A stretch of 64,000 nucleotides of DNA from Alphaproteobacteria bacterium (GTDB lineage: Bacteria > Pseudomonadota > Alphaproteobacteria > UBA7887): contig OZ241350.1 of NCBI GenBank assembly GCA_965200095.1, positions 694,853 to 758,852 of the forward strand, in the 5' to 3' direction. Within the stretch, counting starts at the first letter, position 1. Every line of letters starts with the position of its first letter. A model generated the notes under the pieces. It was not told where the DNA came from. It ran no database searches and saw nothing but the letters and a program-made list of their open reading frames with translations. Position numbers and translations under genes: made by a program. Shown piece by piece: positions 816-52,582 of the stretch.

Positions 816-2951
<2,136 letters not shown>

Positions 2952-3540: not shown

Positions 3541-3654
3541 GCGCCGCAACGCGCTGCAGTCGAGGAGGCCGCGCGCGGGGCAGTGGCGCGCCGGGGCGGG
3601 TGTCGCGACGCGCTACCCTCGGGATGTACTCCGGTCCGCACGGTAATTTCGAGC

Positions 3655-3714
3655 TTGACAAAAGGCGTCGCCCTCCCCACATGCTGGCCCAGCACCAAAC
3701 GGGAGGCCTGACCC
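3655..3714 (+). promoter_or_regulatory. putative promoter/RBS region of the Ubl-E2-JAB/E1 operon
   Basis: TTGACA at 3655-3660. Strong SD GGGAGG at 3701-3706, 8 nt before ATG 3715. No convincing -10 found. Confidence 0.25.
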
Positions 3715-4017
3715 ATGAGTGATGTTCCGGGCGGCGGCAAACGCGGGGCGGGGCCGGTGGCCACCGTAGGCGATGCAACGGAGAGTAACCGCGTGCAAAT
3801 CAAGGTGAACGGAGTCTCCGTCACGGTCACAGAGACCGTCTTGATACGCGAAATGCTGGAAGCGGCAAAAAACGAAGGTGCTATTGAAGGGTTGGTCAAA
3901 GAGTACGCCATTGAAAGGGTCAAGGAGGAAGGGGAAATCGGGATTGAGGAAATCATCACTGTGAAGGAGTTTGAGGAATTCTTGGCCGTGCCGACAGAAC
4001 CGACTCCGGTCGCATAG
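3715..4017 (+). CDS. small beta-grasp (ThiS/MoaD/ubiquitin-like) protein with acidic C-terminal extension (putative Ubl)
   Basis: 100 aa. The core IKVNGVSVTVTETVLIREML resembles the ThiS-type hxVNGxxhxhxxxxTlxxLL start of a beta-grasp. First gene of an operon with E2-like and JAB-E1 genes. Does not end in Gly-Gly, so processing would be needed. Confidence 0.4.
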   Translation: MSDVPGGGKRGAGPVATVGDATESNRVQIKVNGVSVTVTETVLIREMLEAAKNEGAIEGLVKEYAIERVKEEGEIGIEEIITVKEFEEFLAVPTEPTPVA

Positions 4018-4052
4018 CTAAATCGTAACTTCACGTGACCGGAGAAGGGTAC

Positions 4053-4439
4053 ATGAGCGTCGACGGTCGGATCGCCGGCGAATTGGAGGCTTTGGGTTAT
4101 CGACCCGAGATATTCGATGCCGAGACATCGGGCGGTCAACAGCGAGTCGTGACATTCCCATATCGCATAGGCGTCGGCCGATTCAAGGGCGAGATACGGA
4201 ATGTCGGTATTTCCACACAGTGCGAGGCGGTCGGATATCCTGAAACTCCGCCACACTGGATATTCATCAGCCCTCCGATAACCGATACGAAAGACGGCGG
4301 CCACCACGGAGTAAACAGCTTTGCCGGGAGAGAATGGGTCGCGTTGAGCCGCCCTCCGGGCGCATTTTGGGACAGAGTCCGGCACAAGGGTATGAGAGCG
4401 TATCTGGAGCATCTTTCCAGGGTCTGGTCCCGGATATGA
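4053..4439 (+). CDS. E2-like (UBC-fold) conjugating-enzyme candidate
   Basis: 128 aa from ATG 4053 (SD GAGAAGGG); the ORF-track GTG at 4035 has no RBS. A conserved Cys in ISTQCEAVGYPETPPHWIF and a hydrophobic core are compatible with a prokaryotic E2. Sits between the Ubl-like gene and the JAB-E1 fusion; stop overlaps the next start (ATGA). Confidence 0.45.
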   Translation: MSVDGRIAGELEALGYRPEIFDAETSGGQQRVVTFPYRIGVGRFKGEIRNVGISTQCEAVGYPETPPHWIFISPPITDTKDGGHHGVNSFAGREWVALSRPPGAFWDRVRHKGMRAYLEHLSRVWSRI

Positions 4440-5896
4440 GGCGGGCAGACTGGCATGAGGTCGTCCTGACATCGGAGGCCAACGACGCGGCATGCGACCA
4501 TCTCCTCCGGCACCACCGGCGTGGAGAATTGCAGGAAGACCTTTGCTTCGGCTTGTGGACTCCGAGCACCGGAGCGGAGCGGGAGACAGCCATCGTCACT
4601 GCCGTTTTGCCGCCCGCCAAGGGCGAACGAAGCCTGCATGGAAATGCGAGCTTCGAATCGCGCTACCTGACAAGGGTCGTCCGGGCGGCTATCAGGCGCG
4701 GTCAGGGTTTGGCGTTCATGCACAGCCATATGAGCGCCGGATGGCAAGGCATGAGCGCGACAGACGTCGAGGCGGAGAGGGATCGCATTGCGGACACCGC
4801 GAGAGCGACCGGCAAGCCGCTGGTCGGAATGACGGTGGGAACCGACGGCCATTGGAGCGCCAGGGTCTGGAAAGACGGGACGGCCGGCAAAACGAGGATA
4901 TGGTCCAGGAAGGTCAGGGTTCTGGAAAGGAGCCGGTTGCTGATTTGGGAGCGACCGGTATCAAGGAGTGCCGATCGTCGAAAACAGCGACGAACCGTCG
5001 ACAGTTGGGGAGAGGAACGACAGCGTCGCTTGGAAGCGTTGCGGATAGGCATTGTCGGCGTCGGCAGTGTAGGCAGCGTCGTAGCGGAAGGCCTCGCGCG
5101 AACGGGCTTACGCGAACTGGTGCTGATCGACCATGACGTTATAGAGCCGCATAATCTGGACCGTATGCTGAACACCAGTGCAAGGGATATCGGACGCTTC
5201 AAGACCGACGTTGCCGAGAAGGCGGCGCGACGAGCCAGCACCGCCGACGAAATCCGGATCGTAAATCATAGAAGAAGCATAAGAGATAAAACCGCATACG
5301 CGGCTGCGCGGGACTGCGACATTCTGGTAAGTTGCGTCGATAGTCCTGTAGCGCGAGATATCCTCAACAGAATATCCTACAGAGACGCCATTCCAGTTGT
5401 GGATGGCGGTGTGGAAGTACGAAAAGATCCGCAAAGCGGAAACATGAACGCCGCACGATGGAAATCGCATGTGGCGAACCCCTATACGGAATGCCTGAGA
5501 TGCAAAGGCCAGTACATATCGAGCGACGTGATGCTGGAGCTAGATGGATCATGGCGGAACCCCGACTACATCAAGGGGTCGGCAGGATCGGAGAAGGGGG
5601 CGGAGAACGTCTTTTGTCTGAGTTTATCGGCGGCGAGCGAGATGTTGAACATGACGTTGCGGATGCCGATCGCCGAAGAGTGGTGGCCAGAGCAGGAGGG
5701 TGTAGAACGTAACTTCGTAACCGGTAGGACCAAGAAGAGAATCGGCGGCTGTCATAAGAACTGCTCGGTAAGCCAGCAGAAGTGGGCGGGCGACGATGCG
5801 GGCGCGATTCTATATCTCCGCGACAGGGACGTCCGTCCGGGATTCGCCGTTCTGAATGGGGTTGCAAACATTTTCCGGCGGTTGGTAAGGCTATGA
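4436..5896 (+). CDS. JAB/MPN (JAMM) peptidase - E1-like (ThiF/MoeB) fusion protein
   Basis: N-terminal JAMM-like motif E...HSHMSAGWQGMSATD (HxH...S..D). Central Rossmann motif IGIVGVGSVGSVVAEGLARTGLRELVLIDHDVIEPHNLDRM, typical of E1/ThiF. CxxC (CLRCKG) downstream. ATGA overlaps at both ends (4436 and 5893). Confidence 0.8.
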   Translation: MRRADWHEVVLTSEANDAACDHLLRHHRRGELQEDLCFGLWTPSTGAERETAIVTAVLPPAKGERSLHGNASFESRYLTRVVRAAIRRGQGLAFMHSHMSAGWQGMSATDVEAERDRIADTARATGKPLVGMTVGTDGHWSARVWKDGTAGKTRIWSRKVRVLERSRLLIWERPVSRSADRRKQRRTVDSWGEERQRRLEALRIGIVGVGSVGSVVAEGLARTGLRELVLIDHDVIEPHNLDRMLNTSARDIGRFKTDVAEKAARRASTADEIRIVNHRRSIRDKTAYAAARDCDILVSCVDSPVARDILNRISYRDAIPVVDGGVEVRKDPQSGNMNAARWKSHVANPYTECLRCKGQYISSDVMLELDGSWRNPDYIKGSAGSEKGAENVFCLSLSAASEMLNMTLRMPIAEEWWPEQEGVERNFVTGRTKKRIGGCHKNCSVSQQKWAGDDAGAILYLRDRDVRPGFAVLNGVANIFRRLVRL

Positions 5897-6921
5897 TGAA
5901 AACAACAGACGAAAATTGGTGCGAGTTAATGGAGAAACTACATGACGTTAGCAAGCGCGTATCCAGGAGGCCGCTCTACATTGGGGAAATGCACGGCCTG
6001 CTACACGACAATTTGATTCTTTGCGCGCTGTTTCAGAACTTACCGGAAACAGGCGCTGGCTTGGTTCACTATACGTCATGGGAAAACGCACTGAACATGT
6101 TCAATGAATATGGTAACCCGGTAATGAGAATGTATAATTATGAGCAGTCTAATGACCCGGACGAGGGTAAAATCAAACCTAAAGAATGGGAAGAAGTGGA
6201 AAGAAACGTTGATCCGATTGACAAAAGTCAGAAAGATAACGACGGCAGGAAAAATGATTTCGAATACGACAGAAATACATACGGATGTTCGTTTTCTTCC
6301 GGTGGAAAGGGAGTCGAGGATGACCTGATGTACTGGAGGATGTACGGAAATAATGGGGAAGGATGTTCTTTGAAAATAACTCCCCCGAGTGCGCGCAAAC
6401 TAACGTCGCCGAGCACGCATAAACAAGATATATTAAGGGTGTGTTACCGTGACAAGGATTCCTCCGATAGGTGCGATCAGGAAGAGATTGAGGATGGAGA
6501 GATCGCCGTACGATTGCGCAAATTTTTCGCAGTCTGCACGGATATTGTCAGTAAAACTAACGGCAAATATCCGATTGAGGCAGAATTCATTGTAAGAAGA
6601 CTTCGCGAGATCGTTCGTGGATGTTATCACTTGGTCAAACATAAGAATTACGCAGTGGAGCGCGAGTGGCGCATGATTAAGGTTGCGCCGAATTCGGAAG
6701 CAATTCGATTCGATACGACGGGAGGAGGTCTGATTAGACGGTACATTGAGGGCCCTTGTCTGAAGGAAATTCTGAGTTCTGCTTCGGTCATAACGATAGG
6801 GCCAACCGTGCCCAACGGCGGTGCCGCGCGAGCCTATATTGAGTATCTGGCCAAGACAAAGCACGGAATACAGCATGTGGAAGTAAAAAATTCCAATCAA
6901 AACTATCGACGGCAATTGTAA
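5893..6921 (+). CDS. hypothetical protein, low-GC, possible effector or target of the Ubl system (DUF2971-like motif?)
   Basis: 342 aa from ATG 5893 (MMKTTDENW...), overlapping the E1 stop by ATGA. Visibly AT-rich compared with its neighbours. Motif LVHYTSWENALNMF...NDPDEG is reminiscent of the YxYTS...NDPxE signature of DUF2971; this is a weak recollection. Confidence 0.55.
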   Translation: MMKTTDENWCELMEKLHDVSKRVSRRPLYIGEMHGLLHDNLILCALFQNLPETGAGLVHYTSWENALNMFNEYGNPVMRMYNYEQSNDPDEGKIKPKEWEEVERNVDPIDKSQKDNDGRKNDFEYDRNTYGCSFSSGGKGVEDDLMYWRMYGNNGEGCSLKITPPSARKLTSPSTHKQDILRVCYRDKDSSDRCDQEEIEDGEIAVRLRKFFAVCTDIVSKTNGKYPIEAEFIVRRLREIVRGCYHLVKHKNYAVEREWRMIKVAPNSEAIRFDTTGGGLIRRYIEGPCLKEILSSASVITIGPTVPNGGAARAYIEYLAKTKHGIQHVEVKNSNQNYRRQL

Positions 6922-7010
6922 CGGTGCCGTCCTGAAACTTTTCTTGCACGGATGCTTGATGTCTGTCCAGCGGTTGTACGTTAGGGTGGTGGGTCGGCGC
7001 AATGATCGAT

Positions 7011-7865
7011 CTAGGCTCAGGACTCATAACCAGAATATGACGGTTGCGGCGATGCAGATGGCGCTGAAGAAGGTGTGCGCGCAGCGGTCGTATCGCGTGG
7101 CGATGCGTCGCCAGTCCTTGAGCCGACCGAACATGCGCTCAACGAGGTTGCGTTGCTTGTAAAGCCCGGCATCGCAGGCGACCGGCTTCTTGCGGTGCGC
7201 CCGTCCGGGGATGCAGGGGGCGATCCCGCGTCCCTCCAGGGCTTCGCGGAAGCGGTCGCTGTCGTAGCCCTTGTCGCCAATCGGGACATTCGCGTCCGGC
7301 GGCAAGGCGTTGAACATCATCGCGGCGCCGCGATGGTCGCTGACCTGCCCTTCGGTCAGCAGCATGATCGGGGGCTTGCCGTCGCCGTCGCAGACCGCGT
7401 GCAGTTTCGAGTTGAGGCCGCCCCGGGTGCGTCCGATACAGCGCGAAAGAGCCCCTTTTTTAGCAGACTGGCTGCGGTGCGGTGGGCCTTCAGATGGGTG
7501 GCGTCGATTATCACCGTCCCCGTTGCCCGGCCCTCCGCCGCCAGGGCCGCGAAGATGTGGTTGAACACGCCGGCCTCGCTCCACCGCACGAAGCGGTTGT
7601 AGAGGGTCTTGTGGGGACCGTATTCGGAGGGCGCGTGACGCCAGATGAGGCCGTATCGGATCACATGGATGATGCCGGAGATGACGCGCCGGTCATCGAC
7701 CCGGGGCACGCCGCGGACCTTGTTGGGCAGCAGCGGCCGGATGCGATCAAATTGGGTCTCGGAGAGCCAGAACTGGTGGTCGGACATGGTGCACCCCCTG
7801 TATCTGGTGGCAGCACACCACACATCCTAACCCAACGCAACCCCCTTTATGGGTCCTGAGCCTAG
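7011..7865 (-). mobile_element. IS5-family insertion sequence, copy 1 (IS427/IS1031-like subgroup)
   Basis: Terminal inverted repeats ggctcaggactcataa / ttatgggtcctgagcc, flanked by CTAG on both sides (4-bp TSD typical of IS5). Two overlapping transposase ORFs. Near-identical copies at 18075-18923 and 59834-60682. Confidence 0.85.
7024..7787 (-). CDS. IS5-family transposase OrfAB (programmed -1 frameshift at A6G within LLKKG)
   Basis: OrfA MSDHQFWLSETQFDRIRPLLP...HLKAHRTAASLLKKG and OrfB ...GDKGYDSDRFREALEGRGI...RNLVERMFGRLKDWRRIATRYDR (DDE) in overlapping frames. Confidence 0.8.
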
Positions 7866-7964
7866 GTACCAAACGAGTTGATCGCAACATTTGCAGGACG
7901 GCGCCCCGTCCCCTATGCTCCGCCATCGTCCGCTTCCCGGCGCGGGCTGCGAACGGAGACCGGC

Positions 7965-9500: not shown

Positions 9501-9896
9501 CCGCGTCACGACGATGAGCGTTACCCGGGGGAACGACCGCAAGGGCCCCGCAGCGTTGCGGCAAGGCGGGGAACTGCGCCGGACGCCCGCGGATGCGACG
9601 GCGCGCCGCCTCGAAACGGTTCTTGCGGGTCGAAACGGGAATCGCCGGCGACGGCCGGCGGTCCCTGTCGGCGGGTCCCGGCATCGGACCCCCGGATATG
9701 TCGCGTCGGCGCTCCCGGAGACGATCGCAGCCGGCCCGCCGCGCCTCGGCAAGGGCCGACCCTGTCCGGACACACGCGAGACACGGCGCGTCCGGGCCCT
9801 TATCCGTGGCCGGAAGCCCGCTTGCCGCCGGGACGGGCTGCGGGGAGCGGCGAACCGGCACGTTGATCGCCAGCTGCGCTCATGGTAGCGTAGGGC

Positions 9897-9962
9897 TACC
9901 TCTTCATCGGGGCCTCTTCATCGGGGCCTCTTCATCGGGGCCTCTTCATCGGGGCCTCTTCA
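9897..9962. repeat. 14-bp tandem repeat (cctcttcatcgggg) x about 4.6 in the leader/promoter of the autotransporter gene
   Basis: Seen directly: ctacctcttcatcgggg cctcttcatcgggg cctcttcatcgggg cctcttcatcgggg cctcttca. Ends 24 nt before ATG 9986; SD GAGGAAG at 9971-9977. Confidence 0.85.
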
Positions 9963-9985
9963 GATTTGTCGAGGAAGCCCCTTTC

Positions 9986-12900
9986 ATGCCGAGAATCGAC
10001 CTTGTCATCCGTCGCATCCGCCGCGGCGGTTTCGCGGCCGCGCTCCTTGCGTCGCTTCTTCCCGCGTCCGACGGGGCGCATGCGCAAGCGGCGGCCTGCA
10101 CGCCGACGCAAACGGTCAGCGCGCAGGCGGACGCGAACGGCGTCTACACCACCACGCTGACCTGCGCGGACACTTCCGCGGCGGCGGGGGCGGCGGACTA
10201 CCGGCAGCTCCACTACAACCATGGCGCCGCATACGGGACGAACCCGGCCGACCGCGACGCGAACCTCGCGAACAACAACGCTTACAATAACCTGGCCCTC
10301 ACGATCGGGCGCGGCGTGATATTCACCGCCGACGGCTACAACGACAACAGGCTCACGGTCACGGACGGCGCCATCCTCCTGTGGAACGCCGGCGCCAAGA
10401 CCGTAACCATGGAGGACGGCGCCGTCATCAAGCTCGAACGGACGCCGGCCTACTGGACAGCGACGGATCCGGACCGCCCGATGTCCGCGACGCCCCAATA
10501 CGACCCGGCATGGTACCCGACCTGGCGGCACGCCCTGGACAACCTCGTCGGCATCGGCGCCTATTCGTATACCGGCGCGGACGGCGACGCGGACATCACG
10601 ATCGGGCACCACGGCGTCATCGACATCGACATCGACATCGGCGGCACCTACGGGAAGAACGGGTATTACGACGCCAGCGCCGGCCGCGCCATCGATGTGC
10701 AGGTAAAGGACACCGGCGGCGCCTCCGCCGCGCGCGCCGACCTCGACGTTCTCATCGAGATGGGGGCCACCGGCGTCATCCGGCATGTCGAGGGCTCCGA
10801 CGGCCTGAGCGGCATCTACGTGGAGAACTTCAGCGAGGAGGGAGACATCAGGATCGACCTGGCCGAAGGCTCGCTGATCGACGTCTCCGAAGGGGGCGGC
10901 TACGGCGTCACGGCGCTGCTTCGCAGGGACGCCGCCAACAACAACGGCCAGCGAACCGGCGACCTCATCGTCAACGCAGCCGGAACGATCAGGGCGGCCG
11001 CGAGGAGCCGGGTGCAAAGCTTCCAGCACGGCTACGGCATTTTCGCCGACCAGGGCGGACACACCGGCCGGGTTCGCGTCGTCTCGTCGGGAACCATCGA
11101 GACCGTGCAGGGCCCCGCCATCGACGCGAGGGCATGGAGAAGCACCCAGACGCACCGCGACGACCCCGACACCGCGGAGATCGAAGGGCACATCGTCGAC
11201 GTAACGGCCGGGACGATGGAGACCCGGGGGACCACCGCCGTCTACGCCTCCACCGGCAGCGCCAACTCCCACATGACGGTCCGGGTGGCGGAGGGCGCCA
11301 CCGTCCGCGCCCAGGCGCTCACGGACGAGGACTATGCGAACGGCGCCCTCACGCAGGAAACCCTGGGGGCCGACGGAAGCCCATACATCATTTCCGGCAT
11401 CTACCGCTATCACGGATGGCGGAGAGTGGACGTGGAGCAGACGACCGACAGCGGCGCGACCGTGACGGTGAAGCGGCTGGAGCCGATCATTACCGGCATC
11501 GCGGTCCGCGATTTCTCGTCGAGTCCCAACGCCGACGGCTTGAGGGACCAGGTGCTCGTCGACGGGACTGTCGAAACGGTCGGCGGCAAGGCCGGCGTGG
11601 ACCCCGCCATCTGGCTGGAGAGCGGCGGGCTGGTTACCGTCGGGGCGAACGGGCGCGTCAGCGCGGACTCCGGCATTGCGATTTCGGGCGGGTGCTTCAC
11701 CGATTACCGCAAGGTCGATTTCGTCAACATAGATTCGCCGGTCGATTGCGACACGGCAGCGCCCCGCACCCTCGAGGTGAGGGTGGCCGGGACGGTCGAA
11801 GGCGACATCCGCGTGCTCGACGACGGCGTCCTGAATTTCAGGTCGATGGAAGGCGGGACGGTCGCGGGCACGGTGCACGACCCCGCCGGCCCGCTGACGG
11901 TGGCGGGCAGCGTCGGGCGTCTGCTTTACACCGACGGCGGCGCGGTGACGGTGACAGGCACGGGGCGCCTCACCGGCGTCGACGGCGTGGCGTTGCGCAG
12001 CGAGTCGGGCGATCTGAGCCTGACCGTTGCCGACAAGGGCGTGGTTACGGGCGATGTCCAGGCGCGCGGCGGCGGCCGGCTGATGCTGGATGTGAGGGAA
12101 GGCGGGACGATTTCGGGAACGGCGCACGACCCCGTTGGCCCGTTGACGGTGGCCGGCAGCATTGGACGCCTTCTCTACACGTCCGGCGGCGCGGTGACGG
12201 TGACGGGCACGGGGCGTCTCACCGGCGTCGACGGCGTGGCGTTGCGCAGCGAGTCGGGCGATCTGAGCCTGACCGTTGCCGGCATGGGCGTGGTTGCGGG
12301 CGATGTCCAGGCGCGCGGCGGCGGCAAACTGACGCTGGATGTGAGGGAAGGCGGGACGATTTCGGGAACGGCGCACGACCCCGTTGGCCCGTTGACGGTG
12401 GCCGGCAGCATCGGGCGTCTGCTTTACACCGACGGCGGCGCGGTGACGGTGACGGGCGCGGGGCGTCTCACCGGCGTCGACGGCGTGGCGTTGCGCAGCG
12501 AGTCGGGCGATCTGAGCCTGACGGTGGCCGGCATGGGCATGGTTACGGGCGATGTCCAGGCGCGCGGGGGCGGCCGGCTGACCCTGGACCTGAAGGAAGG
12601 CGGGACGATTTCGGGGACGGTGCACGACCCCGCCGGCCCGCTGACGGTGGCCGGGAGCATCGGGCGGGTGCTCTACAGTTCGGGCGGCGCGGTGACGGTG
12701 ACGGGCGCGGGGCGCCTCACCGGCGTCGATGGCGTGGCGTTGCGCAGCGAGTCGGGCGATTTGAGCCTGACCGTTGCCGACAAGGGCATGGTGACCGGCG
12801 ATGTCCGGGCGCGCGGGGGCGGCCGGTTGACCCTGGACCTGAAGGAAGGCGGGACGATTTCGGGGACGGTGCATGACCCCGTCGGCCCGCTGACGGTGGC

Positions 12901-14737
12901 GGGCAGCATTGGACGCCTCCTCTATGCCGACGGCGCCGCGGTAACGGTGACGGACACGGGGCGCCTCACCGGCGTGGATGGCGTGGCGCTGCGCAGCGAC
13001 GCCGGCGACATCGACCTGACGGTGGCCGGCCTGGCGACGGGCGACATCGACGCGCGCGGCGACGGCGACCTGACGGTCGCGGTGTCGGGGACGGTCGACG
13101 GCGACATTTTCGGGCGCGGCGCGGGCGAACACACAGTGACGGTGGCGCGCGGCGGCGCGGTAACCGGGACCGTGGACCTCGGCGCGAGCACTGTGACGAC
13201 GGACGGCGCCGTGGGGCGGGTTCGTTTCGAGCGCGGCGGCGCGGCGACGGTAGGTTCGACGGGCCGGATTTCCGGTATCGACGGCGTCGCGGTCGACAGC
13301 CGTTCGGGCGACCTGACGGTGACGGTGGCCGGCCTGGCGATGGGCGACATCGACGGGCGCGGCGGCGGCGACCTGACGGTCATGGTGTCGGGTAGGGTCG
13401 ACGGCGATGTCTTCGGACGCGAAGCCGGCGAACACGAGGTGACGGTGGCGCGCGGCGGCGCGATAACCGGGACCGTCGACCTTGCCGGCGACGGCGCTGT
13501 GACGGTGGAGGGCATGGCGGGGAGGATTGACTTCGAGCGCGACGGCGCCGTGACGGTGGGGCCGGAGGGCCGCATCTCCGGCAGAGACGGCGTGTCGATA
13601 GAGAGCCGTTCGGGCGCCCCGGCGGTGACCATCGTGGCGTCGGCGGGCGAGTCGCTGCGCGATGCGGTGGGGCGCGTCGGCGGGGCGATCGTCGCAGCCG
13701 AGGGCGAGCCTTCGGTGATGCTCGGCCGCGAGGGCGAGACGGGGTCGATAACGCTCGGCGGGCTCGGAACGGCGCGCTCGATCCCCGAAGGCGCCTACGA
13801 TGTGGGCGTGGTGCGCACGGCGTCGGGCGCGTTGCGCGCGGTGAGCCGGCTGGCGGCGCGCACCCGCGTCTACGAGGCTCTGCCGTCGCTGCTTCTGGGG
13901 ATGGAGCGCACGGCGTCGCACGCCGACCGTGCGGCGGCGCCCCGCGCGTCGGACGGGACGTGGGCGCGCGTCGATGCGTCGCGGGGGTCGTGGGAGGCGG
14001 CGAGTTCGGCCAATGCGGGGACCGGCTACGACCGTCGCGGTTTCTCGTTCCAGGCCGGCCTGGACGCGGTCCTGAGCGAGGAGACGCGCGCGGGTCTGTC
14101 GGTCCACTGGCGCCGGGCGACGGCGGAGGTGTCGCGCAACGGCGGCGAGATCGAGGCCCGGGGCGCGGGCGTGGGTCTGTCGGCAACATGGTCTCCGGGG
14201 CCGTTCTTCGTGGACGGCCAGGCGGCGGCGACGCTCTACGATGCGGACCTGAAATCGACGCTGCGCGGGAGGCTGAAGGACGATGTCGGGGCGCAGGGCC
14301 TTTCGGCGGCGCTGGAGGCGGGGCGCACGGTTCCCGTGGCCGAGGGCGTTACGGTGACGCCGCGGGCGCGGGTGGCCTGGTCGTCGCTGTCGCTTTCGGG
14401 CTTCGTCGACGACGCGGCGGGGGCGCGGGTGTCTCTGGACCGGGGCCGGAGTTTGACCGGTCGCGCCGGGGCGCTGGCGGAGCGCGTCCTGGGCGAAGGG
14501 GGCCGCATCTTCGGCTCGGTGGATGTGGAGCGCGAGTTCTCGGCGGAGACGCGGATGTCGGTCGCGGGGACATCGCTGGAGACGGCGGGCGAGGAGACGC
14601 GCTATATGGTCGGGGTCGGCGGCGAGCATGGCTGGGAGGATGGCCGCTTCGCGCTGCGCGGCGCGCTGGACTATGCGATGTCCGGCGGCGATGCGCGCGA
14701 CTACGGTGCCCGCGCCAGCCTCTCGATGCGCTTCTGA
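9986..14737 (+). CDS. autotransporter (type Va) adhesin-like protein with repetitive passenger domain
   Basis: ATG 9986 followed by signal peptide MPRIDLVIRRIRRGGFAAALLASLLPASDGAHAQAA. Gly/Thr/Val-rich beta-helix-like passenger. C-terminal roughly 270-aa autotransporter beta-barrel ending ...YGARASLSMRF (terminal aromatic). Confidence 0.85.
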   Translation: MPRIDLVIRRIRRGGFAAALLASLLPASDGAHAQAAACTPTQTVSAQADANGVYTTTLTCADTSAAAGAADYRQLHYNHGAAYGTNPADRDANLANNNAYNNLALTIGRGVIFTADGYNDNRLTVTDGAILLWNAGAKTVTMEDGAVIKLERTPAYWTATDPDRPMSATPQYDPAWYPTWRHALDNLVGIGAYSYTGADGDADITIGHHGVIDIDIDIGGTYGKNGYYDASAGRAIDVQVKDTGGASAARADLDVLIEMGATGVIRHVEGSDGLSGIYVENFSEEGDIRIDLAEGSLIDVSEGGGYGVTALLRRDAANNNGQRTGDLIVNAAGTIRAAARSRVQSFQHGYGIFADQGGHTGRVRVVSSGTIETVQGPAIDARAWRSTQTHRDDPDTAEIEGHIVDVTAGTMETRGTTAVYASTGSANSHMTVRVAEGATVRAQALTDEDYANGALTQETLGADGSPYIISGIYRYHGWRRVDVEQTTDSGATVTVKRLEPIITGIAVRDFSSSPNADGLRDQVLVDGTVETVGGKAGVDPAIWLESGGLVTVGANGRVSADSGIAISGGCFTDYRKVDFVNIDSPVDCDTAAPRTLEVRVAGTVEGDIRVLDDGVLNFRSMEGGTVAGTVHDPAGPLTVAGSVGRLLYTDGGAVTVTGTGRLTGVDGVALRSESGDLSLTVADKGVVTGDVQARGGGRLMLDVREGGTISGTAHDPVGPLTVAGSIGRLLYTSGGAVTVTGTGRLTGVDGVALRSESGDLSLTVAGMGVVAGDVQARGGGKLTLDVREGGTISGTAHDPVGPLTVAGSIGRLLYTDGGAVTVTGAGRLTGVDGVALRSESGDLSLTVAGMGMVTGDVQARGGGRLTLDLKEGGTISGTVHDPAGPLTVAGSIGRVLYSSGGAVTVTGAGRLTGVDGVALRSESGDLSLTVADKGMVTGDVRARGGGRLTLDLKEGGTISGTVHDPVGPLTVAGSIGRLLYADGAAVTVTDTGRLTGVDGVALRSDAGDIDLTVAGLATGDIDARGDGDLTVAVSGTVDGDIFGRGAGEHTVTVARGGAVTGTVDLGASTVTTDGAVGRVRFERGGAATVGSTGRISGIDGVAVDSRSGDLTVTVAGLAMGDIDGRGGGDLTVMVSGRVDGDVFGREAGEHEVTVARGGAITGTVDLAGDGAVTVEGMAGRIDFERDGAVTVGPEGRISGRDGVSIESRSGAPAVTIVASAGESLRDAVGRVGGAIVAAEGEPSVMLGREGETGSITLGGLGTARSIPEGAYDVGVVRTASGALRAVSRLAARTRVYEALPSLLLGMERTASHADRAAAPRASDGTWARVDASRGSWEAASSANAGTGYDRRGFSFQAGLDAVLSEETRAGLSVHWRRATAEVSRNGGEIEARGAGVGLSATWSPGPFFVDGQAAATLYDADLKSTLRGRLKDDVGAQGLSAALEAGRTVPVAEGVTVTPRARVAWSSLSLSGFVDDAAGARVSLDRGRSLTGRAGALAERVLGEGGRIFGSVDVEREFSAETRMSVAGTSLETAGEETRYMVGVGGEHGWEDGRFALRGALDYAMSGGDARDYGARASLSMRF
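11852..13030. repeat. 249-bp (83-aa) tandem repeats, about 4.7 copies, inside the autotransporter passenger domain
   Basis: Unit GGTISGTAHDPVGPLTVAGSIGRLLYTDGGAVTVTGTGRLTGVDGVALRSESGDLSLTVAGMGVVTGDVQARGGGRLTLDVRE starts at 11852, 12101, 12350, 12599 and 12848. Antisense ORFs of 237 nt recur every 249 nt. Confidence 0.8.
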
Positions 14738-50070: not shown

Positions 50071-52374
50071 TCAGTCCGAAATATTTCTACAACGCTGTAT
50101 AACGGCATCCTCGTTTGCACTTGGAGCCATCAAAATTCGTCCAACCCTCTTCTTATGACTGCGACATGGCCGCCATATGGTGTTTCTTCTCGACTTATCT
50201 GGAAGCACAAAACCTTCCGACTGAAGAGACTGCAACACACGAGGAACCAGCCGTCGCGCGCGACTGTCCAATCCTCTATACAAGGCATTCTCCCTGCGCC
50301 CCGACCCGGTTTGCATGTATAGCTTTCTCAATATGGTTAGGCACACCCGAATCCCCAAAGGAAGATCAAGCGCTAGCATCTGAGATATAGTATCCGTCGC
50401 TTTATTGAATTTGCCGATTTCGCATTTGGCGTCAAATTTCTCGGCAGGAAGATCCAATCTGGATACGGGACCTTCCATTTCATCGATCATGCATTCTTCA
50501 AAAGATGGCATTCTAGCGATATCGACATCCGACTCAATCTCCACACGGGAGAAAAAACAGTCGGCATACCGCAATTTTGACAAATTAGACCTAGAATCTC
50601 CAAATTCAAGATCAGCTATGAAAAGGCCGCTCAGTTTTATATCTTTCTGGATGCTGCAATCATTCTCCAGCATCAACCTTGCTATATCTGACGCCATGTA
50701 ATTGGCGCCACACTTATACGCCTCCGCAAGTGCTGTATTAATCTTACCCTCTCCAAAACCTTCGGCCTTCACCTTACGAGAGGCCACACCGATACCAAGA
50801 GGGCCCATTGAACTCTCGATATCCTCCAAAACGGACAGCGGGAAATTGAATGGATCATGTATAAACGTCAGAAGATCTCCGGATCTACACGCATCGGCAA
50901 AAGACTCATCAATGAAAGTCCGAGAATTTTCCTCCTCGCGATCAACACCAAGACCCGGGAGGCGCTGAAGGAGAACTAAGCCTCGCTCGTCCGGACTGTA
51001 TCCGCAGACACTCTTAAACGCCTGAATCACCGAATCCTGACTAATCGATCCAAGTCCCATGTGCGAGGATCGGGCTTTTGTTGCTAGGCGTTCAAGAATT
51101 TTCCTCACCGTGCTTCCATCAATTCCTGCCTCGATCTCCGCCTCGCGATCTGCAATGCTATCCAATAGAGTATCCCAGCCATCTTCTGGACTCTTGGGGC
51201 TATCCGTAGATTCTTTATCAAGAAAAACATTCAAAAACCCTTTAGCGGCTAAGTATCCCACAAGCAACGGCCTAGTGGGAAGCCAAGACGGAACCGATCC
51301 GACAAGTCCCACACGCCTTAGGTATGTGCCAATTTGATCATCGGTAAATTCAGTGAGAGATAGTTCGATAGACTCCTGTGAGAGGCCAAGAGACTCGTGT
51401 CTCTCGCCGGAATTATCAAAAAAATGAGCTCGCCCCGCAATTAATAATCCGGATCCTTTGGGATGCTCGCGAACTAGACGTCGAACTGCTTCCATCGCCC
51501 GATAGCGATTGTCTCGAAGATTATGCCATGATCCCTGAATGGGGATCGTAGAAATCTCATCAAAACCATCTATCAACAGGTGAACATATCCAGCCCGCCA
51601 TGCTCGGACGAGATGAGATGGCTGATCAAAGCCAATCGATGTCGCATGTCTTATAATAACTTCTGCACTGTCCCGCTGTCCGTAATGATCTCGAAGGTTG
51701 AGATAGACGGGGAATTTATGCGTCATACCTCTCAAATGATCTTCCTTAAATCTGTAGTACATTTCCCGAAGTGTCATGCTCTTGCCAGCACCATAATCCC
51801 CCAAGAGAACCACGGTTTTCCCCTCAGAGATCGCGGATCGGAGTTTGCTTCGGGGGAATGCTTCCTTAGACTTTATGTCCAACAAATCAATCGGAACGTA
51901 TTTGATATCTGCGCCATTTACGCTGTGCTTTCCGGTCGCCGGATCACGAACACTGCCAAAGGAGTATGCGTCTCTTGTGCTGAGATAGCCTCTTGAATTT
52001 ATGAGCCGCGATTGAAATTGCGAGAACGATAATGTATTTATATCTTGGCGATATTTTTCCGCGACTTTGCGCTGATCGGCGGTGGGTTCGTCAAGTGTGA
52101 TAAACCACCCTTTGACCGCACGGTCACTACTTTTCCTCCGACGGCGCTGCACCAATTTGGATATCTTCGATATGTCATGTAGCGCCTTATCTTTTTTTCG
52201 AGATGTCGTTGCTTCAACTATATGAATGCAATCTTCCGTTTCGAATATACCGTCCGTTTCTCGCCCATCCACCATCGCGGCACCAAAAAATTCAGCGCTT
52301 GGCCATAGTGATCTAGCGATACGTCGAACCTCATGTTCGAAATTTTCGCCCTCATATCCGATTCCGTTTGCCAT
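50071..52374 (-). CDS. NACHT-family STAND NTPase with N-terminal PD-(D/E)xK-like nuclease domain (bacterial NLR-like, candidate antiphage protein)
   Basis: Low-GC gene. N-terminal TDGIFETEDCIHIVEATTSRKKDK (D...ExK). Walker A TVVLLGDYGAGKSMTL. NACHT Walker B signature VHLLIDGFDE. Long C-terminal helical/repeat region. ATG 52374 has an AGAGGG SD; alternative start at 52518. Confidence 0.7.
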   Translation of the reverse strand: MANGIGYEGENFEHEVRRIARSLWPSAEFFGAAMVDGRETDGIFETEDCIHIVEATTSRKKDKALHDISKISKLVQRRRRKSSDRAVKGWFITLDEPTADQRKVAEKYRQDINTLSFSQFQSRLINSRGYLSTRDAYSFGSVRDPATGKHSVNGADIKYVPIDLLDIKSKEAFPRSKLRSAISEGKTVVLLGDYGAGKSMTLREMYYRFKEDHLRGMTHKFPVYLNLRDHYGQRDSAEVIIRHATSIGFDQPSHLVRAWRAGYVHLLIDGFDEISTIPIQGSWHNLRDNRYRAMEAVRRLVREHPKGSGLLIAGRAHFFDNSGERHESLGLSQESIELSLTEFTDDQIGTYLRRVGLVGSVPSWLPTRPLLVGYLAAKGFLNVFLDKESTDSPKSPEDGWDTLLDSIADREAEIEAGIDGSTVRKILERLATKARSSHMGLGSISQDSVIQAFKSVCGYSPDERGLVLLQRLPGLGVDREEENSRTFIDESFADACRSGDLLTFIHDPFNFPLSVLEDIESSMGPLGIGVASRKVKAEGFGEGKINTALAEAYKCGANYMASDIARLMLENDCSIQKDIKLSGLFIADLEFGDSRSNLSKLRYADCFFSRVEIESDVDIARMPSFEECMIDEMEGPVSRLDLPAEKFDAKCEIGKFNKATDTISQMLALDLPLGIRVCLTILRKLYMQTGSGRRENALYRGLDSRARRLVPRVLQSLQSEGFVLPDKSRRNTIWRPCRSHKKRVGRILMAPSANEDAVIQRCRNISD

Positions 52375-52582
52375 TTTGCCCTCTACATTCGCAACATGAT
52401 GCGGGCGCAGTGCCACTCCGGCATGCGCCGTGATGGTAGAGAGGCTTTTGCGTGCCGCATTTCGGATGTACGCATGCCAATCTGGGGCTGTCTCGGTTGA
52501 TATCAGGCATTGGAGCACATCCTCGCATCTTGGTCAACCCTCTTTCGCGCGTGCGCCCGGAATTCAGGGCTGCGACCATGCG

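Follow-up and report, generated by a model that had tools for sequence, protein, structure and literature searches.

The present study analyzes the last gene of a four-gene cassette in 64,000 nucleotides of DNA from an Alphaproteobacteria bacterium of the UBA7887 lineage (assembly GCA_965200095.1, contig OZ241350.1, positions 694,853 to 758,852 of the forward strand); this whole stretch is called the window throughout. The cassette encodes, in order, a putative ubiquitin-like protein (Ubl; gene 1), an E2 (gene 2), a JAB/JAMM peptidase fused to an E1 (gene 3) and a protein of the DUF2971 family (gene 4). Gene 4 is a fixed fourth component of the cassette. Its product is well motivated, from its conserved residues and predicted fold, as an ADP-ribosyltransferase (ART)-like enzyme with a DarT/Tpt1-like core and an intact H...Y...ExE set, and it is probably an NAD+-dependent effector of an abortive-infection-type module controlled by the Ubl, E2 and JAB-E1 proteins. 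The combination of a Bub-like conjugation core with an ART-like fourth gene appears undescribed in the literature searched.

Conservation of the cassette

Gene 4 is certainly a real, coding gene: at E<=1e-3 its product has 165 homologues, which are 35-70% identical and almost all full length, the best non-self match having E=2e-151. The original prediction, which was made from the sequence alone, had placed it at the end of a Ubl-E2-JAB/E1 operon, and this was confirmed. Two start codons are available: the ATG at 5893, which shares 4 nt with the end of the JAB-E1 gene (TGA, 5894-5896), and the ATG at 5896, which shares 1 nt with it. The frame runs to a stop codon that ends at 6921, and either start implies translational coupling. 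Of the two, 5896 is favored by the public gene call (P0001, 341 aa, 100% identical) as well as by the homologue alignment.

All 17 of the full four-gene cassettes examined, from Pseudomonadota, Acidobacteriota and Gemmatimonadota, carry the DUF2971 gene, and the absence of the gene from orthologous operons, which had been named beforehand as an outcome that would refute its assignment to the system, was not what was found. Gene order and the 4-nt overlap of the window recur in 10 of 11 close genome matches, which come from Alpha- and Gammaproteobacteria, Vicinamibacterales and Longimicrobiales; further full cassettes were found at three other loci (L017, L026, L029). When loci were picked from the E1 side and DUF2971 was ignored, the cassette was again complete (3/3). 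Pairwise identity matrices for E1 and DUF2971 were correlated (r=0.82), with none of 2000 Mantel permutations as high. DUF2971 was the fastest evolving of the four proteins (mean identity 0.42; Ubl 0.56, E1 and E2 0.68-0.69). In two loci (L033, L038) DUF2971 proteins of a sister clade (P0258, P0261; about 28% identical) are encoded convergently with a homologous E1-E2-Ubl(...VA) set, the two units overlapping at their 3' ends by 20-32 nt. DUF2971 thus remains associated with the conjugation genes even where the locus is rearranged, and this argues strongly for a functional link.

There was one exception, a Ubl gene (100 aa, ending ...NIA) with an intact DUF2971 gene and neither E1 nor E2 (L006, identical to L016; 9338-11023), flanked by a metallo-beta-lactamase (MBL)-fold gene and recA in a Paracoccaceae genome that also has a full cassette (L003). 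A scan of metagenome contigs returned distant DUF2971 relatives only, a scan of viral contigs gave no match, a phage collection searched with DarT likewise gave none, and the plasmid collection PLSDB held a single distant DUF2971 protein, so that the cassette clade was absent from it.

The gene 4 product as a DUF2971 protein

The original prediction had noted a segment of the YTS...NDPxE kind reminiscent of DUF2971, and the family assignment was borne out: Pfam PF11185 matches the protein with 33.4 bits against a cut-off of 22 (residues 148-261, model positions 2-89 of 89), and a match to the same model was obtained for 42 of 42 clade members scanned (E<=1). The HYTS and NDPxEG motifs lie N-terminal of the Pfam model and are invariant in the clade, as H59-Y60-T61 and N87-D88-P89-x-E91-G92. 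Conservation extends well beyond the clade. In 110 distant representatives clustered at 50% identity, both motifs are kept at 95-100%, as are R79, S133-F134, W148, Y151, G152, C158, Y185, K249, E256, E258, R260 and G303-P304; for H59, S133 and C158 the values are 96-98%. An exhaustive profile search found 2265 representative clusters of DUF2971 at E<=1e-3, only about 20 of which score above 280 bits, which makes the cassette clade a minor branch of a large family; the sister DUF2971 clusters at E<=1e-10 number 578.

In the AlphaFold model of the protein (pLDDT 87.5) three helices form an N-terminal module (residues 5-46), residues 195-245 form a large helical insert, and H59-Y60-T61, N87-D88-P89-x-E91-G92, S133-F134, W148/Y151, K249 and E256-x-E258-x-R260 all lie in a beta core. 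Only the cassette clade has the N-terminal helical module (residues 1-46), since matches to the sister clade begin near residue 50. Toward the C-terminus S334...Y338-R339 is conserved, also in the wider family, and is followed by variable tails. A reading as a cysteine protease through C132 was ruled out, this residue not being conserved across DUF2971.

Searches of other collections gave little. Homology of the gene 4 product to a housekeeping enzyme, also named beforehand as refuting, was not seen; NCBIfam had no match for genes 1, 2 or 4; PADLOC gave only weak PDC-S31 matches (E 0.003-0.008); and in PHROGs a single family of unassigned function was hit (phrog_1762, 6e-7). One 575-aa homologue (P0244) has an N-terminal JAB/ThiF portion truncated inside the adenylation domain and a C-terminal portion that is DUF2971 from residue ~75 onward, and is probably a deletion or an assembly chimera, not a designed fusion.

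DUF2971 has been assigned to the ARTs independently in two papers. In one (PMC12522546) its nearest relatives are DarT, AbiGi and Tox-ART-HYD1, and a conserved Tyr, an ExE motif and large helical inserts are described; in the other (PMC11381338) Aristaios, a DUF2971 protein, acts on its own in abortive infection and has a predicted fold that is ART-like. The corresponding motifs can be followed along the gene 4 product: H59-Y-T on a predicted strand at 56-62, Y130/S133 on a strand at 129-137 with W148/Y151 after it, and E256-x-E258, as motif III, at the start of a strand at 258-264. These residues (H59, Y130/S133, W148/Y151, E256/E258) are kept at 96-100% in the 110 distant representatives. 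The product had at first been said to lack a recognizable catalytic motif; this no longer holds, the invariant H...Y...ExE set being typical of ART-like enzymes.

The conjugation genes

The ThiF domain of gene 3 is recognized by Pfam at 2.2e-33, and the best match of gene 3 among PDB sequences is, by a wide margin, Citrobacter BubCD (9ea4, E=1.2e-20, vs about 5e-10 for MoeB), the alignment including the JAMM HxH...S..D motif. In the 12 orthologues compared, E34, H96, H98, S107 and D110 of the JAMM site are invariant, as are zinc-site cysteines C353/C356 and C439/C443. The crossover region, residues 357-438, contains no invariant Cys in these orthologues while Y360 and Y378 are invariant, a pattern that resembles the one described for BubCD, where the intermediate is a tyrosine oxyester (PMC11601596). 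The C-terminal third of the protein gave no alignment to PDB sequences, so that there is no sequence match to BubCD Y370. PADLOC BilD also matches gene 3 (1.7e-7), over the ThiF core only.

The E2 (model pLDDT 89.9) likewise has no invariant Cys, its C57 being replaced by Gly or Lys in divergent members. Assignment of gene 1 as a Ubl remains putative and comes mainly from operon context: Pfam Multi_ubiq matched weakly in 3 of 14 orthologues (best E 0.021), and comparison of the Ubl profile with E. coli ThiS and with a multiubiquitin protein was not significant. Its C-terminus follows the pattern ...AVPxGxTxVA, with the terminal Ala invariant in 14/14 orthologues. Three loci (L005, L011, L033) have tails of 4-9 residues beyond the conserved ...VA, and in another (L010, 7660-8346) Ubl and E2 are naturally fused in frame, as in BubAB; together these suggest cleavage by the JAB after Ala. 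Profiles of E2 and Ubl searched against PDB sequences matched neither BubB nor BubA. One of the cassette genomes also has a canonical Multi_ubiq + Prok-E2_E + Prok-JAB/ThiF operon about 6 kb from the cassette (L026), and hhalign of the cassette E2 and Ubl against that Prok-E2_E and Multi_ubiq pair was weak, with probabilities of 41% and 7%.

Table 1. Positions in the window of the cassette genes and of the insertion sequence that borders them
Feature	Position	Strand	Description
Gene 1, Ubl-like	3715..4017	+	100 aa; disordered N-terminus, single putative beta-grasp, IKVNG motif, C-terminus ...AVPTEPTPVA
Gene 2, BubB-like E2	4053..4439	+	128 aa; without conserved cysteine; S99-R100, K112, H120 invariant
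Gene 3, JAB/JAMM peptidase-E1 (ThiF) fusion, BubCD-like	4436..5896	+	486 aa; ATGA start overlaps E2 stop
Gene 4, DUF2971-family, predicted ADP-ribosyltransferase fold	5893..6921	+	342 aa, or 341 aa from ATG 5896
IS5-family insertion sequence	7011..7865	-	90 bp 3' of DUF2971 stop; right edge of low-GC island

Neighborhoods of related loci

More distant cores, with E1 proteins 35-41% identical, occur on actinobacterial plasmids and consist of a VA-ending Ubl, a small E2 and a JAB-E1 followed by other downstream genes. On Rhodococcus pRWAY01 (L034) the gene after the core is Abi_2 (Pfam 7e-53), and on M. avium pP7a (L036) a sigma factor, a 336-aa hypothetical protein and an AAA ATPase are downstream. 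Since the downstream genes differ on these plasmids, the 3' position looks like an interchangeable output module, which suggests a modular design of a Ubl core plus an interchangeable effector, the cores pairing with DUF2971, Abi_2 or other fourth genes. Upstream of the core on pRWAY01 and on Clavibacter pCCa (L035) there is, divergently, a long HigA-type antitoxin with a small gene that is annotated as a RelE/ParE toxin in the former and as hypothetical in the latter; at L017 a HigB gene and a 403-aa gene lie directly upstream of the cassette.

The cassette neighborhoods are typical of defense or mobile islands. A predicted restriction-like system recurs as the insertion site: in four loci (L026, L029, L031, L032) the cassette has a DUF1156 gene on one side and DUF499/DUF7680/PDDEXK_9 genes on the other. 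Other loci adjoin SIR2/nSTAND, Cas13a, HEPN, GmrSD, AAA_15/21, reverse transcriptase or toxin-antitoxin genes and transposases. A DprA-like/LDcluster4 gene is immediately 5' of the Ubl in L026 and L029.

Proposed function and alternative explanations

We propose that the gene 4 protein is probably the NAD+-using toxic effector arm of an anti-phage module of the abortive-infection type, and that the Ubl/E2/JAB-E1 machinery would switch or restrain it through covalent attachment or removal of the Ubl, with either the effector or something governing it as the target. Because the cassette includes no macrodomain or ADP-ribosylhydrolase antitoxin, the conjugation module is a natural candidate regulator. 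NAD+ chemistry, substrate, toxicity and the direction of regulation are the parts of this proposal that we infer. Gene 4 had been put forward as either an effector or a conjugation target, and the effector half of that suggestion is the better supported, by the ART-type fold and residues, the defense context, Aristaios and the Rhodococcus Abi_2 gene. A narrower version, in which a Ubl machine not relying on catalytic cysteines directly controls the ART toxin by covalent Ubl attachment or removal, or in which the ART modifies the Ubl or its conjugates with ADP-ribose, is tentative and we consider it doubtful.

Several observations weigh against the proposal. The ART motifs were placed by sequence order and predicted strands, and Foldseek of the gene 4 model against the PDB gave nothing below E 0.3. 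A hidden Markov model of the clade searched against PDB sequences returned only coiled-coil noise from the helical insert, and no ART family was matched in Pfam scans of the 42 clade members. Of the structural and profile-profile checks that had been advised at the outset, the first gave a confident model and the second was not significant: hhalign was run against DarT and against a profile of four DarT sequences, with queries built from the clade by itself or together with 110 sister representatives, and gave E 0.03-0.04 with only motif I, LVH[YF]TS, aligned. Biochemical transfer of ADP-ribose by a DUF2971 protein was not reported in the papers found, and the biological role of the Bub operons themselves is not established (PMC11601596). 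Finally, the cassette of the window sits between uvrB/cupin genes and an insertion sequence, where a defense island is not obvious.

An alternative explanation is that the gene 4 protein is mainly a substrate encoded in cis, the Ubl being put on a lysine such as the invariant K249 or the protein's own C-terminus being activated in the manner of Cap2, with enzymatic activity secondary or absent. This is unlikely, though it would account for the tight operon linkage and co-divergence with E1, for the orphan Ubl and DUF2971 pair without E1 and E2 in a genome with a full cassette, and for the conserved C-terminal motif with its variable tails; moreover, conjugation of a system's own enzyme has precedent in type II CBASS, Pycsar and MBL systems (PMC11601596). 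Set against it are the roughly 25 ART-pattern residues conserved far beyond the cassette clade, which point to catalysis and not to modification alone. Its C-terminal form was rejected, because the S...YR motif is family-wide and ends in Arg, an unlikely substrate for adenylation, and the invariant C-terminal Ala of the Ubl suits the E1 better. Modification of gene 4 is in any case compatible with the proposed effector, as its regulatory step.

A second alternative is that a gene 4 ART acts on the pathway itself, ADP-ribosylating the Ubl, E2, E1 or Ubl-marked targets, in a crosstalk like that of SidE, CteC and PARP9-DTX3L. Ubiquitin-modifying ARTs are known, SidE acting on Arg42 and CteC on Thr66. 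The Ubl and DUF2971 pair can persist without E1 and E2, and the clade-specific N-terminal helical module could provide a surface on which a cassette partner docks; we nevertheless judge this alternative distinctly improbable.

It is very improbable that gene 4 is a replacement for BubE, working as a hydrolase or deconjugase through H59 with S133 or C158 and not by ART chemistry. What would favor this is that gene 4 occupies the slot of BubE, a Ser-His dyad protease (PMC11601596), and the high conservation of the three residues concerned.

The base composition bears on a last alternative. The original prediction described the 342-aa open reading frame as strikingly AT-rich, which it is: its GC content of 0.459 is the minimum among all 1029-bp segments of the window, against a mean of 0.688 (sd 0.067) outside the low-GC island formed by the cassette (z = -3.4). 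The island covers the four genes (about 3600-7010, 3.4 kb), genes 1-3 having GC 0.56-0.59. The further suggestion that low GC meant a foreign origin of gene 4 did not survive comparison. In 11 of 11 loci measured (the window, L001-L005 and L007-L011), in hosts of 42-68% GC, gene 4 is below genes 1-3 by 4-17 points in GC and by 4-31 points in GC at third codon positions (GC3), and the dip, as it recurs in every locus, is a family trait and so no evidence of separate acquisition; it could, speculatively, reflect low-expression codon choice for a toxin. Hence the notion of an unrelated, recently acquired AT-rich cargo, to which the lowest-GC kilobase of the window and the insertion sequence 90 bp downstream might point, is effectively refuted by the same position in 17 full cassettes across three phyla with an ATGA-type overlap, by co-divergence with E1, and by the recurrent dip in GC and GC3.

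If gene 4 is the effector proposed here, the cassette has replaced the protease of Bub operons, which are proven conjugation machines without a known biological output, by a toxin-type enzyme with a readable output (toxicity, NAD+ turnover, phage defense), and this makes regulation by bacterial Ubl conjugation testable. DUF2971, a large uncharacterized family, would gain a defined regulatory partner in one clade. Should the narrower version with direct Ubl control or ADP-ribosylation of the Ubl be true, this would be the first bacterial immune system built on crosstalk between a ubiquitin-like protein and ADP-ribose, a pairing otherwise known, to our knowledge, from eukaryotic PARP-DTX biology and the SidE effectors of Legionella.

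Surroundings of the cassette in the window

A uvrB and a cupin gene lie immediately upstream of the low-GC island (816-2951, minus strand) and a 1714-aa autotransporter lies downstream (9593-14737, plus strand), so that the cassette of the window adjoins housekeeping genes. The IS5-family element between cassette and autotransporter contains an open reading frame at 7024-7584 with matches to DDE_Tnp_1_2 (1.5e-18) and DDE_Tnp_1 (1e-14), and is bounded by 19-nt terminal inverted repeats (7011-7029 and 7847-7865, 95% complementary) that are themselves flanked by a 20-nt imperfect inverted pair (6923-6942 and 7886-7905). A second low-GC island, at 50071-52518 on the minus strand (GC 0.47-0.50 vs about 0.70), holds one 815-aa gene for a NACHT NTPase (Pfam 5e-12), which may be a bacterial NLR-type defense gene.

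Comparison with known systems

Among the closest known systems are the type I Bub (6E.1/DUF6527) operons (PMC11601596). Both these operons and the cassette have a JAB/JAMM-E1 fusion, that of the cassette being homologous to BubCD, and a BubB-type E2 with an invariant Ser (S99 in the cassette) and no conserved Cys. They differ in the last gene, which in Bub is BubE and in the cassette is DUF2971, and in the Ubl, which ends in Gly in Bub and is a single small domain ending in Ala (...VA) in the cassette; Ubl and E2 are usually separate genes in the cassette, unlike BubAB, and both are too divergent for a sequence match to BubA and BubB. BubE (DUF6527), which cleaves Ubl conjugates via a Ser-His dyad, has been stated to be present in all Bub operons (PMC11601596). 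No DUF6527 was found in the cassette, among the nearby window open reading frames scanned, or among the Pfam-annotated genes near the loci looked up. Published descriptions of Bub operons define them by DUF6527. The Bub catalogue in the literature draws on operons that contain DUF6527, and modular cassettes of the present kind would escape it. Within the parts of the 2006 survey of 6a-6e operons that were available to us the four-gene arrangement is not described, and DUF2971 in a ubiquitin-like context was not found in the papers retrieved that mention DUF2971.

The original prediction had taken BilABCD as its frame. On its sequence features the machinery is Bub-like (6E-like), resembling BubCD and BubB, and not Bil-like. 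BilABCD shares with the cassette a Ubl, an E2, a JAB and an E1, and an anti-phage context. Its JAB, in contrast, is a separate protein, its multidomain E1 (IAD-AAD-CYS) has a catalytic Cys, its E2 contains Cys and its ISG15-like Ubl ends in Gly, whereas in the cassette the JAB is fused to an E1 with a single adenylation domain and neither this kind of E2 nor this kind of Ubl is seen.

Among ART-like systems, Aristaios, from a lactococcal plasmid, is likened to gene 4 by its description: it too is a DUF2971 protein of similar size (316 aa) with a predicted ART fold and acts in abortive infection (PMC11381338). Aristaios is a single gene, whereas the cassette protein is always coupled to Ubl/E2/JAB-E1 and has the clade-specific N-terminal helical module. 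DarTG has the macrodomain antitoxin DarG, while the four genes of the cassette, in the loci examined, include no macrodomain or ADP-ribosylhydrolase; profile similarity between DarT and gene 4 is not significant, and gene 4 has large helical inserts. Finally, type II CBASS, Pycsar and 6A-MBL systems, which are regulated by Cap2/Cap3, resemble the cassette in having an E1/E2/JAB module beside the immune enzyme that it modulates. They have no free Ubl, the C-terminus of the enzyme itself being conjugated, their E2-E1 fusion is Atg7-like and uses cysteines, and the immune enzyme is a nucleotide cyclase or an MBL protein in place of an ART.

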